Source: an uncultured Candidatus Saccharibacteria bacterium (lineage in GTDB: Bacteria > Patescibacteriota > Minisyncoccia > Minisyncoccales > CAYUHA01). Taken from it: a stretch of DNA of 34,446 nt. Below are positions 11,290 to 14,827 of this stretch, piece after piece (position 1 is the first letter of the stretch; every line of letters starts with the position of its first letter). The translations under genes and the position numbers were made by a program. The notes under the pieces are model-generated. The model saw only the letters and a list, made by a program, of their open reading frames with translations, searched no databases and was not told where the DNA came from. The stretch spans positions 1 to 34,446 of the forward strand of contig CAYUHA010000001.1 of NCBI GenBank assembly GCA_964444395.1, given 5' to 3'.

Positions 11290-11470
11290 TATAGCTATTC
11301 TCTTTTAATCTTCTTCTTCTTTTAATCTCCCTTTCTCCTCTCCCTTTCCTTAATTTTCCTCTCCCCCTTTTCTTATTTCTCCCCCTCCTTTGAAGAGGGA
11401 GGATTAAGGAAGGAGAGGGCTTTTTTCCTCTCCCCTCTCCCCTTCTCTATTCTTTCCTCTTTACGATTTA
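11290..11470. repeat. CT/GA-rich low-complexity block carrying the recurrent CCTCC...GGAGG hairpin motif
   Basis: Contains 'tctccccctcctttgaagagggaggattaaggaaggagaggg' (11378-11419). Related copies lie at 23020-23066 and 24180-24223. Confidence 0.8.
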
Positions 11471-11523
11471 CACTCTGTTTAAAGAGCTTATTGTTATAAA
11501 ATTATAAATAAATATAAAGATAT

Positions 11524-11572
11524 AATTCAAAAGGGCTTATTGCTTAAGTTAAGCAATAAGCCCTTTTGAATT
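11524..11572 (-). terminator. 49-nt perfect palindromic hairpin, terminator-like, closing the rSAM/peptide/methyltransferase unit (copy 1)
   Basis: 'aattcaaaagggcttattgcttaa g ttaagcaataagcccttttgaatt'. GGG/CCC stem base followed by TTTT in both directions. It lies 21 nt after the methyltransferase stop. Confidence 0.65.
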
Positions 11573-11592
11573 ACAATTTGAATTGCAAGAGA

Positions 11593-12444
11593 TTATTTTC
11601 GGTTCCTTACTGCATAAGATATATACCAATCATTTAACACTGGCAAATAATCTCCTTTTTCATTCCATCGCCCTTCAAAAAATATTTTGTGCTCTATATT
11701 ACAAATGCCGGCATTTTTCAAAGCGCTCACAATCATTTCTTTTGTAAGAAAATTAATGTTATGTTTTTTGGCCCGCAAGAAACTTTTTGAGCCCTTCCTA
11801 TAATGAATACCACTTGCCACAAAATATCCTTCTTTTTTCAAAACTCGTATGGCTTCTTTAATGGCTTCTTTCATTTTTGGCTCGTTCAAACCGTGCCAAG
11901 AAGATACGCTGTCAAAAACACCATTCTTGAAAGGCATACTTCTGGCATCAGCGCATATTATTGAAACCCTGCTATATTTCTTTATCTTCTTCAAAAAATA
12001 CTGGAGTTCTAAACAGATAGAATAACTGTGTTCAAGGGCAACAATTTCTCCTTTTGCCACTGAAATGATATTTCTTAGAAATCTTCCTGTCCCGGTGGCA
12101 AAATCAAGATGAACCGAATTCTTGCTTCTTTTGATTGAGGAAAGCATCCACTGCCATTCTTTCCTAAGTGCCTTCCGCTCTTCTCTTGAAAAAAGAAGTA
12201 TCCATTTTTTGGGAATTTCTTGGGCAAGGGTAGTTTTTCTTAAATTTTGCACAGTTCTTTTTGTCGGCTTTTTGCAGGAAGAGATAAAGCAGGTTATTCC
12301 GTTTTTGATAGGAAATTTTTTATTGCATATTTCACATCGCAATTCGCCGTCAAGTATTCTTTCTCTTGTTTTTTTATGGATTGAAAATTTAAGAGTGCGA
12401 TGACAGGTTGGGCAGGCAAGTTGATTTAAAATTTTAACTTTCAT
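11593..12444 (-). CDS. Class I SAM-dependent methyltransferase with N-terminal Trm112-like zinc ribbon
   Basis: 'CPTC...(24 aa)...CEIC' ribbon with 'PIKNGI'. Motif I 'HLDFATGTGRF', acidic post-I 'VALEHS', 'ADARSMPFKNGVFDSV', 'LKKEGYF'. Confidence 0.8.
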   Translation of the reverse strand: MKVKILNQLACPTCHRTLKFSIHKKTRERILDGELRCEICNKKFPIKNGITCFISSCKKPTKRTVQNLRKTTLAQEIPKKWILLFSREERKALRKEWQWMLSSIKRSKNSVHLDFATGTGRFLRNIISVAKGEIVALEHSYSICLELQYFLKKIKKYSRVSIICADARSMPFKNGVFDSVSSWHGLNEPKMKEAIKEAIRVLKKEGYFVASGIHYRKGSKSFLRAKKHNINFLTKEMIVSALKNAGICNIEHKIFFEGRWNEKGDYLPVLNDWYISYAVRNRK

Positions 12445-12546
12445 ATTTTTGTTATAATATCACATTAAACGGTTAATCGCAATAAAAAGCCCCAAGTTTT
12501 GGTTGTTGTGTAACTTGAGGCGTTGCACTTTTGTGCTTTTGTACTG

Positions 12547-12702
12547 TCAGCTACCTTTCTTCGGCGAGTAAGGCGTGCCACAGTACTTCCGAGAGGTTGT
12601 CGGACAGTTGAAGGAAAGTTCTTTTGCTTCCTTCTCTGTCCTGATGAGAGGCTTCTCATACCTCTTTCTCTCTGTCGTTGTAGCGGCCTTTACCCTTTTC
12701 AT
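12547..12702 (-). CDS. Unannotated 51-aa basic, Cys-containing peptide (candidate RiPP precursor)
   Basis: Hand-translated: MKRVKAATTTERKRYEKPLIRTEKEAKELSFNCPTTSRKYCGTPYSPKKGS*. ATG at 12702-12700. GGAGG (complement of 12711-12715) lies 8 nt upstream, inside the rSAM 3' end. The ATG is 5 nt after the rSAM TGA (12710-12708). Too short for the supplied ORF track. Confidence 0.6.
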   Translation of the reverse strand: MKRVKAATTTERKRYEKPLIRTEKEAKELSFNCPTTSRKYCGTPYSPKKGS

Positions 12703-12707
12703 GGCGT

Positions 12708-13727
12708 TCACCTCCTTTTCTTGTTGAGGGTTCTCATGTATTCCGCCTCTTTACATACTCTTGGAGGCGGAGCGAACAGATTTCCTGTTTCAACGAGATT
12801 CAAGCCGGGACACGGTCGACAATAAGCAAAAAGTTTACAGTTGGCACACTTTGGCATATCAGAGAATCTGATTACCCGAAACGCCTTGAGTTCGGGAGAG
12901 TTACTCCATATTTCAGAGAAAGATCGCTCTCGAAGACTGCCACACTCTATTGGAACCTGAATGCATGGAGTGACTACGCCATAGGGAGAAATGTAGCAGG
13001 ACATGTGTGCGGCGCCACACGGAATTTTATTGAACACCCCTGAGTATCCTTGAAGAGGATCAGGGTCGGGTTCGTACTCTTTTGAGAAGATAGGATCGCC
13101 AAGCACCTGTCTTACTTGCTGATCTGTAATGTGATACCGAAGAGGGGCTTGAGAACCATCAGTTTTAGGAGTGATGCGGTAATCTACTTGGAACTGAGCT
13201 CCTATCTCCTTTGCAAAGTTATACAGCCGGCGATAGCCGTTGATATTGCTTTGCATCAAGACTGAGAATATCTTGATAGGAACACTTCTCTCTTTTAGAG
13301 CACTGATAATTTTCAACGTCTTGGACAGCGACCCCTTTCTTTTTGTGATAGCATCATGAACCTCTGGATCGAGATCATACACACTAAAAGCAACAAGTTC
13401 AGGATGCCATTCAGTAATTTCGTCAATCATTCCCTCGTCTATAAGCGTGCCGTTGGTGAGAAGCCGTACTGCAAAATGCAGTTTCCTGGCATGTCTCACA
13501 ATTTCCGGAAGGTCTTTTCTCAGAAAGATTTCCCCGCCACTTAAGGTAAGATACAGGGTACCCGCTTCAGCTAATTGTTCGAGGATATCTTTGATTTCCT
13601 CAGTAGAGCATTCAAGCTGTTTTTTACCCTCTGTGAGATAGCAATGCACGCATCGCAGATTGCATCGATAAGTAAGATCGATGTGGGCAACAAGCGGGAT
13701 TTGTTTTCGCACCGCTTGCTCTCTCAA
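12708..13727 (-). CDS. Radical SAM enzyme with C-terminal SPASM (auxiliary 4Fe-4S) domain
   Basis: 'YRCNLRCVHCY' CX3CX2C cluster. SPASM-type Cys pattern 'CGAAHMSCYISPYGVVTPC...C...CANCKLFAYCRPC...C'. The start is a TTG in the track and is not well supported. GC is clearly higher than in neighbouring genes. Confidence 0.88.
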   Translation of the reverse strand: MREQAVRKQIPLVAHIDLTYRCNLRCVHCYLTEGKKQLECSTEEIKDILEQLAEAGTLYLTLSGGEIFLRKDLPEIVRHARKLHFAVRLLTNGTLIDEGMIDEITEWHPELVAFSVYDLDPEVHDAITKRKGSLSKTLKIISALKERSVPIKIFSVLMQSNINGYRRLYNFAKEIGAQFQVDYRITPKTDGSQAPLRYHITDQQVRQVLGDPIFSKEYEPDPDPLQGYSGVFNKIPCGAAHMSCYISPYGVVTPCIQVPIECGSLRERSFSEIWSNSPELKAFRVIRFSDMPKCANCKLFAYCRPCPGLNLVETGNLFAPPPRVCKEAEYMRTLNKKRR

Positions 13728-13798
13728 CGCCTCAAAGATCTCGGTGCCATCACTGCTTATGGCGACATCACTCCGCTCCCTGGATTGTAATTAATTGC

Positions 13799-13842
13799 AA
13801 TTCAAAAGGGCTTATTGTTTAAGTTAAGCAATAAGCCCTTTG
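13799..13842 (-). terminator. Hairpin copy 2 (imperfect), terminator-like, downstream of the M23 peptidase gene and upstream of the rSAM gene
   Basis: 'aattcaaaagggcttattgtttaagttaagcaataagccctttgc'. On the minus strand the stem is followed by TTTTGAATT. Confidence 0.6.
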
Positions 13843-14408: not shown

Positions 14409-14628
14409 ACTTTCTCCTTTATACCACAAAATTCTCAAAAAATCTATCAAAATCTTCAAATCTGGTCCCCTCCTTTCTTAAATTCTCAAATTTTTGAAGA
14501 ACTAAAAATAACCCTTAAATAACCTTTTTAAAAATAGTAGATTATCTGGTATTTTTTTAAATTTTTAATTTGTATTTTTGAAATTTTATATTTAATTTAT
14601 TAATTTATTTAATTTTTGATTTTTCTTA

Positions 14629-14700
14629 TGCCCCCACCAGGACTCGAACCTGGACTAATAGCTTAAAAGGCTACTACTCTGCCAATTGAGTTATGGGGGC
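14629..14700 (-). tRNA. tRNA-Lys (anticodon UUU)
   Basis: Reverse complement folds by hand: acceptor GCCCCCA/TGGGGGC, D arm ACTC/GAGT, anticodon stem GTAGC/GCTAT with loop CTTTTAA, T arm CCAGG-TTCGAGT-CCTGG, discriminator A. CCA is not encoded. Confidence 0.88.
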
Positions 14701-14827
14701 AATAAATAATTTTTAATTTTTAATTTTTAATTTTTGTTAATTTAATTTTTAATAAATTTTTATTGGAATTATATTTTTTATTTAAAATAAGTTTAAAAAT
14801 CAAAAATTAAGAAATAAAAATTAAAAG

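Follow-up and report, generated by a model that had tools for sequence, protein, structure and literature searches.

In the sactipeptide and ranthipeptide systems (SkfB-SkfA, ThnB, AlbA, CteB-SCIFF), a radical S-adenosylmethionine (SAM) enzyme joins an N-terminal PqqD-type RRE (recognition element of peptides made by the ribosome and modified after translation, RiPPs) to a catalytic core and a Cys-rich C-terminal auxiliary-cluster domain, and is encoded beside a short precursor, which consists of a leader and a core containing Cys. The mycofactocin (MftA/B/C) and pyrroloquinoline quinone (PQQ; PqqA/D/E) pathways are built along related lines, with a radical SAM/SPASM enzyme that depends on a PqqD-type RRE and a short precursor whose C-terminal core is strongly conserved. 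Here we analysed a stretch of 34,446 nucleotides (the window) from an uncultured Candidatus Saccharibacteria bacterium (contig CAYUHA010000001.1), in which three co-directional open reading frames (ORFs) on the minus strand at 11.5-13.9 kb encode a radical SAM/SPASM enzyme, a 51-aa peptide and a methyltransferase, flanked by genes for an S41 C-terminal processing protease and an M23 peptidase. An initial annotation, made from the sequence, had read these genes as a minimal precursor, maturase and tailoring unit, and all three ORFs are present where it placed them. We conclude, at a probability of roughly 0.7, that the locus is a conserved, mobile three-gene cassette of RiPP type that occurs mainly in the candidate phyla radiation (CPR, Patescibacteria), and that the copy in the window is 5'-truncated and probably disabled.

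The argument for a conserved cassette begins with the peptide gene. Its ATG at 12702 stands 5 nt past the stop codon of the radical SAM gene, as had been noticed before along with a GGAGG, and is preceded by AAGGAGG at a distance of 8 nt, and the encoded peptide has a leader with Y15-x-x-P18 and the core SFNCPTTSRKYCGTPYSPKKGS. The same peptide is encoded downstream of the enzyme in the nearest relative, contig L001 (90% identical), in L002-L007 (78%) and downstream of Saccharibacteria enzymes only 47% identical to the window enzyme; the placement of the peptide behind its enzyme, regarded as unusual in the initial annotation, is the normal order in this family. The peptide adjoins homologous enzymes in about 60 independent loci, usually with the methyltransferase too, and a metagenome scan contributed 47 additional peptide loci. 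A profile search recovered it in 51 protein clusters, all unnamed and none with a Pfam domain. Positions P18, C33, P34 and C41 are invariant, and Y15, E23, K24, E25, E28, T36, G42, P44, P47, K48, K49 and G50 are conserved in at least 90% of sequences, giving the consensus Y-E-K-P-x-I-R-S-E-K-E-A-K-E-L-S-F-N-C-P-T-T-S-x-K-Y-C-G-x-P-F-S-P-K-K-G-(S). When the gene is compared in 33 distinct DNA versions, variable sites amount to 22/36, 20/36 and 36/36 at the three codon positions, and codon differences to 7187 synonymous versus 5401 non-synonymous. The peptide ORF is under purifying selection. A terminator follows it, with a structure that is conserved in L001 and L002 while the sequence differs (z-scores -2.66, -2.21 and -6.33).

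The earlier impression that the peptide belongs to no named family was borne out, since neither the window peptide nor eight more distant ones matched any NCBIfam or Pfam peptide model, NCBIfam being searched up to E 10. Likewise, no description of this precursor family, or of its pairing with a Trm112-fused methyltransferase, was found in searchable papers.

The second constant partner is the methyltransferase, correctly recognized at the outset as a class I enzyme fused to a Trm112-like ribbon. It matches Trm112p (PF03966) at 29.3 bits, where the cut-off is 22, as well as Methyltransf_25/11/31, and its zinc ribbon matches PDB 6ZXW_H (E 1.5e-7). Within the family, which is compact (members of about 283 aa), C11 and C14 are invariant and C37 and C40 are conserved in at least 90%. 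The methyltransferase co-occurs with peptide and enzyme down to 47% identity of the radical SAM protein, shows an identity of its own of 60-70% in the close group and, among distant loci, of 41-49%, and stands in the order peptide-methyltransferase-PqqD-radical SAM in L088-L090 and L119. A search for a conserved short ORF and a Trm112-type methyltransferase beside homologous enzymes had been proposed, with non-conservation of the ORF as the outcome that would undo the idea; both were found. No conserved protease, exporter or other extra gene was seen beside the cassette among the loci compared. What follows the methyltransferase in L092 (8617-10206) and L099 (1650-2237) is a protein of 529 aa whose matches to Radical_SAM and acetyltransferase are weak and which is not conserved in the remaining loci.

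The radical SAM gene of the window is where this copy departs from its relatives. The 339-aa ORF matches Pfam Radical_SAM (PF04055, E 6.5e-26) and SPASM (PF13186, E 4.3e-12), with the CX3CX2C motif as CNLRCVHC at residues 22-29 and nine cysteines in the C-terminal third (237, 244, 255, 262, 294, 297, 303, 306 and 325). These include C294-x2-C297-x5-C303-x2-C306, and the SPASM-region cysteines are invariant in the family alignment. The domain assignment made earlier therefore holds for the catalytic core, but the ORF is not a complete gene. Translation upstream of its TTG retains homology as 'SRERSDVAISSDGTEIFEA', which is the linker of the closest homologue, P0001 (95% identical, 454 aa, with an N-terminal PqqD/RRE domain), and this homology runs up to 13784, where stop codons take over. 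It is because of these stop codons that the ORF begins at TTG.

Comparison with contig L001 locates the break. The two sequences align without gaps from 13784 to about 12448 at 96.5% DNA identity, and the 5' part of L001 that has no counterpart in the window comprises a TTGACA-type promoter, an AGGAGG, an ATG and RRE codons 1-96, so that about 497 nt from the start of the enzyme operon are gone. Upstream of 13784 the window is unrelated to L001 and contains in-frame stops and a hairpin that trails the M23 gene, lies 8 nt from the end of homology and takes the place of the deleted part. No promoter-like site was found between this hairpin and the radical SAM ORF, and reading the sequence shows a single Shine-Dalgarno-like motif, a GAGG only 2 nt ahead of the TTG. 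The deleted RRE part was not found elsewhere in the 34-kb window by tblastn or blastn, and when the same 34 kb were searched with a hidden Markov model (HMM) of the family PqqD domain, built on 69 RREs of the family, the best E was 0.042; an RRE moved by inversion was thus looked for within the window and not found. An exact look-up of the window methyltransferase, meant to reveal independent assemblies of the truncated arrangement, returned no record. On the evidence of these alignments, the missing domain is damage from a 5' deletion and not a new design, and since the nearest relative still has its fused RRE, the loss is recent.

The relatives agree with this. Of the 120 best homologues, 69 have at least 440 aa, and the long forms listed carry an N-terminal PqqD domain (PF05402); another 43 have 336-360 aa. 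In all four short-form contexts examined (P0076, P0017, P0099 and P0117), a separate PqqD gene of 96-102 aa lies directly upstream and abuts or overlaps the start of the radical SAM gene. Judging from these contexts, the natural short forms are split genes and not RRE-less enzymes. A PqqD domain is present in every other peptide-bearing locus with at least about 330 nt upstream of the radical SAM core, and the window is the only exception. A leader-binding RRE, fused or adjacent, is thus a feature of the family that the window copy lacks. The lack of room for an RRE, listed as unusual in the initial annotation, results from the 5' deletion, and the apparent minimal RRE-less maturase is an artefact of truncation.

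From these comparisons we would picture an intact cassette as follows. One promoter would serve the 450-455-aa enzyme (PqqD-type RRE, radical SAM core and SPASM) and the 47-56-aa precursor, ending at an intrinsic terminator, and a second promoter would serve the Trm112-fused class I methyltransferase. The RRE may bind the leader motif Y-x-x-P-x-[IV], whereby the radical SAM site would be presented with the invariant core, N-C-P-T-T-S-x-K-Y-C-G-x-P-F/Y-S-P-K-K-G. There, the two invariant cysteines would most likely be thioether-crosslinked to acceptor carbons in the sactipeptide or ranthipeptide manner, and the methyltransferase would add one or more methyl groups to the product. Crosslinks formed by these two cysteines are plausible from the conservation of the core, and thioether crosslinking together with methylation is probably the chemistry of the cassette.

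The window copy would be a fragment of such a cassette set directly behind the M23 terminator, with catalytic core ORF, peptide gene and methyltransferase intact. A passage in PMC8172795, citing Wieckowski 2015, describes ThnB without its RRE as still cleaving SAM while forming no thioether. With RRE, promoter and proper start all missing, and with ThnB as described in that passage for a precedent, we think there is a good chance that the window copy is unable to mature its peptide. The promoter-like site before the ATG of the methyltransferase suggests that this gene is probably transcribed separately, and it is likely the only one of the three still expressed normally. The proposed precursor, maturase and tailoring unit thus stands as a conserved unit of the family, but in the window a disabled remnant is more likely than a minimal working system.

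Perhaps the window copy works all the same, either without an RRE or with one supplied in trans. Read-through from the M23 gene would then allow the 339-aa core to be translated, with the TTG or a GTG close to it as the start, and the peptide would be modified without a leader-binding domain or with the help of one encoded outside the window. Several observations weigh for this and against a disabled copy. The truncated ORF has no internal stop or frameshift and keeps every family-invariant residue, and the peptide gene retains its own strong Shine-Dalgarno sequence. Substitutions between the window and L001 number 18 non-synonymous and 9 synonymous, with 5N/3S and 7N/3S on the two branches; both are equally relaxed, and so the window copy is not singled out as decaying. 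Its ORF also starts near the start of natural stand-alone radical SAM subunits (P0017 begins 8 residues earlier), split PqqD/radical SAM architectures being known in the family, so that the core could still fold and act, given read-through transcription and an RRE from elsewhere in the genome. However, every split-form locus examined has PqqD directly upstream of the radical SAM gene, in the very position that the hairpin occupies here, and there is no PqqD within 34 kb. The absence of a promoter-like site, the poor spacing of the GAGG, the recent date of the loss implied by the fused RRE of the 96.5%-identical relative, and the abolished thioether formation in ThnB as that passage gives it also speak against a working copy, which we consider unlikely.

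Calling the 339-aa ORF a minimal maturase that does without an RRE would misannotate a 5'-truncated gene. The truncated copy is nevertheless useful as a natural RRE-deletion allele, at about 96.5% DNA identity to an intact relative.

The sactipeptide and ranthipeptide group is among the described systems closest to the cassette, and we infer that the cassette works like such a system with lasso-type leader recognition. The architecture of the full-length enzyme and the adjacent short precursor are as in that group, and the best solved-structure matches of the catalytic core are the thioether synthase SkfB (2.4e-16) and PqqE (8.8e-15). In contrast to that group, the peptide has just two cysteines and fits no named precursor model (SCIFF has six cysteines in about 45 C-terminal residues, and no SCIFF model was matched), the core is near-invariant instead of variable, a Trm112-fused methyltransferase is present, there is no protease or ABC exporter, and the RRE is deleted in the window.

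Curated NCBIfam cut-offs, which serve as thresholds for family membership, were reached by the window enzyme for no named radical SAM subfamily. Its scores against the respective cut-offs were 131.9/500 for AhbD, 130.8/500 for NirJ2, 126/265 for MftC, 115.5/400 for ScmE, 114.3/381 for PqqE, 100.3/850 for AlbA, 97.5/625 for StsB and 77.8/300 for SkfB. This weakens the case for thioether chemistry: with none at its cut-off, AhbD, NirJ2, MftC, ScmE and PqqE score at least as high as the sactipeptide synthases, and given PqqE-, MftC- and AhbD-like scores similar to those of the sactipeptide type, the chemistry may instead be of C-C type. The methyltransferase gives little guidance either, because its structure model (pLDDT 93.8) finds generic class I matches in Foldseek at a template modelling (TM) score of about 0.5, from which no substrate can be called; among these neighbours are LahSB, a C-terminal methyltransferase of RiPPs, and an archaeal methyltransferase bound to Trm112.

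The top scores also raise the question of whether the locus concerns RiPPs at all. The enzyme might be a maturase of the cofactor or haem type (AhbD/NirJ-like or anSME-like) and the short ORF a chance frame, and AhbD and NirJ2 are indeed the best NCBIfam matches. Both scores are far below their cut-offs, however, and a PqqD/RRE domain occurs in the relatives. In dozens of loci the short ORF is conserved next to the enzyme, with purifying selection acting on it, and its leader has a YxxP RRE motif. The conservation of the peptide already contradicts this interpretation, and we give it hardly any credence.

Leader recognition is where lasso peptide biosynthesis (B1/RRE, TbiB1) comes in. P0001 has an RRE that matches TbiB1, an RRE of lasso peptides (5V1U, E 2e-6), and the YxxP present in the cassette leader has been documented as a sequence recognized by lasso, PQQ and some sactipeptide RREs (PMC12710340). 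The cassette differs in having no lasso cyclase or leader peptidase and in its radical SAM catalytic partner, so the likeness is limited to the probable mode of leader binding.

A further resemblance is to SynChlorMet, an uncharacterised NCBIfam/TIGRFAM system of ScmC, the PqqD-family protein ScmD and the radical SAM/SPASM proteins ScmE/ScmF. Relatives 44-49% identical to the window enzyme stand in cassettes of ScmC, PqqD, radical SAM protein and short ORF, and ScmE is among the top NCBIfam matches. The peptides of those relatives share a K-x-Y-x-K-P-x-[IL] leader, which suggests that the leader motif is common to a much wider clade. The present cassette differs in lacking ScmC, in having a methyltransferase as partner and another core peptide, and in an ScmE score below the cut-off. 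We observed ScmC(PF27840)-PqqD-radical SAM-short ORF cassettes in L143 (2895-5200), L144 and L145 (2921-5175), one of them in a Methanobacterium metagenome-assembled genome (MAG), with different Cys-containing cores. Separately, in nine loci from Omnitrophota, Acidobacteriota, Nitrospirota and others (L009, L013, L014, L020, L021, L032, L038, L048 and L050), enzymes 30-45% identical are followed just downstream by unannotated peptides of 49-62 aa with a YxKPx[IL] leader and cores with 3-4 cysteines (e.g. ...EEVLAxGCK...), for which there was no NCBIfam match.

As to mycofactocin and PQQ, MftC and PqqE are among the best HMM matches, but the cassette peptide has neither a C-terminal Gly-Val-Tyr nor a Glu/Tyr pair, the other pathway genes are absent, the scores are below cut-off, and the cassette is mobile and patchily distributed. 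These matches bear on another account of the product, namely that it is an intracellular molecule, such as a cofactor of the PQQ or mycofactocin type or an effector directed at translation, and not a secreted antimicrobial; the Trm112-type methyltransferase might then act on a cellular target, as immunity, and not on the peptide. The core is almost invariant though the enzymes are only 47-55% identical, which is typical of cofactor precursors and not of bacteriocins, and the window peptide is strongly basic (pI 10.0, 14 K+R) with no hydrophobic segment. The lack of a conserved protease or exporter beside the cassette, the MftC and PqqE matches and a methyltransferase that is intact in the window with its own promoter-like site fit this account as well, and known Trm112 partners methylate tRNA, rRNA or a release factor. 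Against it, a patchy, mobile distribution, with inverted repeats and a serine recombinase, is more in keeping with an accessory trait than with a core cofactor, partner oxidoreductases are absent, and the structural neighbours of the methyltransferase are mostly small-molecule and peptide natural-product methyltransferases. On balance an intracellular product seems doubtful.

Taken one step further, the cassette might make a new kind of modified peptide that acts inside CPR cells, the methyltransferase protecting or modifying a component of the translation apparatus and not the peptide. The basic, near-invariant core of about 20 residues, the radical SAM crosslinking and the absence of exporter and protease point that way, and we regard the idea as improbable. 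If it were true, the window would represent an 'orphan' stage, with the maturase disabled and the methyltransferase, under its own promoter, kept as immunity.

The mobility included in our preferred reading, a RiPP-type cassette with a truncated copy in the window, comes from relatives. Perfect inverted repeats of 244-288 nt enclose the entire cassette in two lineages (L002, 5621-5908 and 8601-8888; L105, 1340-1583 and 4165-4408), and their inner edge overlaps the methyltransferase gene in its last codons. In L002, L100, L122 and L108 the cassette is adjoined by a serine recombinase of 344 aa, and in L007 and L113 it is inverted relative to the same flanking genes, which makes it an invertible, mobile segment. 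The window copy has no such long repeats. They were present in the organism of its nearest relative, since contig L141, which is from the same JGI sample as L001 (3300039233) and has a methyltransferase 96.7% identical in DNA to that of the window, ends in a 3' segment (952-1070) whose reverse complement is identical to the 5' end of L001 (1-119); the assembly broke at a long inverted repeat. In the L001/L141 organism, moreover, the stretch from the peptide terminator to the start of the methyltransferase contains additional sequence that is absent from the window.

In the window, the fragment with cassette homology (13784-11588, 2.2 kb) is set between two copies of a palindromic host hairpin of 43-49 nt, which coincide with the bounds of the region at 11524 and 13842. 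The 49-nt copies lie 8-9 nt outside the fragment ends, and match at 94% in inverted orientation and, over the core, at 98% as a 43-nt direct repeat. A pattern search gave 3 matches against 0.00 expected in the window; the hairpin had 0 matches in JGI metagenome contigs and is absent from the 87 loci compared. Integron attC-like hairpins were ruled out, as there are two copies only, no integrase, and RYYYAAC/GTTRRRY-like words in the loop and not at the ends.

CPR bacteria, with their tiny genomes, are generally considered poor in secondary metabolism. The occurrence of the cassette in a reduced, AT-rich genome had been called unusual. This did not hold up: named homologues come almost all from MAGs of Parcubacteria, Paceibacterota, Patescibacteria or Saccharibacteria. 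GTDB species representatives contain distant relatives only, at most 47% identical. One complete cassette (P0037/P0124/P0196) is on a 4461-nt contig deposited as 'Candidatus Methanomethylicaceae archaeon'; with a contig this short, mis-binning or a real transfer to an archaeon may be the reason. A conserved, mobile radical SAM RiPP cassette with a precursor family of its own and an unusual Trm112-fused methyltransferase is a testable candidate for signalling or competition by episymbionts, and its short precursor and single-polypeptide enzyme should make heterologous reconstitution simple.

Features of the cassette region and their positions in the window
Feature	Position	Strand	Basis
Upstream hairpin copy, 49 nt	13793-13841	-	Repeat search and pattern search; cassette-fragment boundary, terminator-like stem-loop after M23 gene
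5'-truncated radical SAM/SPASM maturase gene	12708-13784	-	Homology to full-length PqqD-radical SAM genes; first canonical start TTG at 13727
Radical SAM/SPASM ORF as listed, 339 aa	12708-13727	-	Pfam matches
51-aa precursor peptide gene	12547-12702 (ORF 12550-12702, stop codon 12547-12549)	-	Conservation; own AAGGAGG
Intrinsic terminator after peptide gene, 10-bp stem and U-tract	12480-12521	-	Fold z-scores
Promoter-like site TTGCGA-17-TATTAT with TG, directly before methyltransferase ATG	12454-12482	-	Consensus match only
Trm112-like zinc-ribbon and class I SAM methyltransferase, 283 aa, intact	11593-12444	-	Pfam, structure model
Downstream hairpin copy	11524-11578	-	25-nt perfect palindrome arms 11523-11573; 49-nt inverted copy 11530-11578; cassette-fragment boundary
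tRNA-Lys	14628-14701

A GA-rich low-complexity tract (11300-11470), situated between the downstream hairpin and the gene of the S41 protease, was ruled out as a structured RNA (no Rfam match, fold z-score -0.67 versus shuffles). The G+C content of the radical SAM gene is higher than that of the methyltransferase gene by about 0.1, and this gap is constant in 20 of the 20 loci compared, which rules out reading it as a G+C island of recent transfer or mosaic origin.

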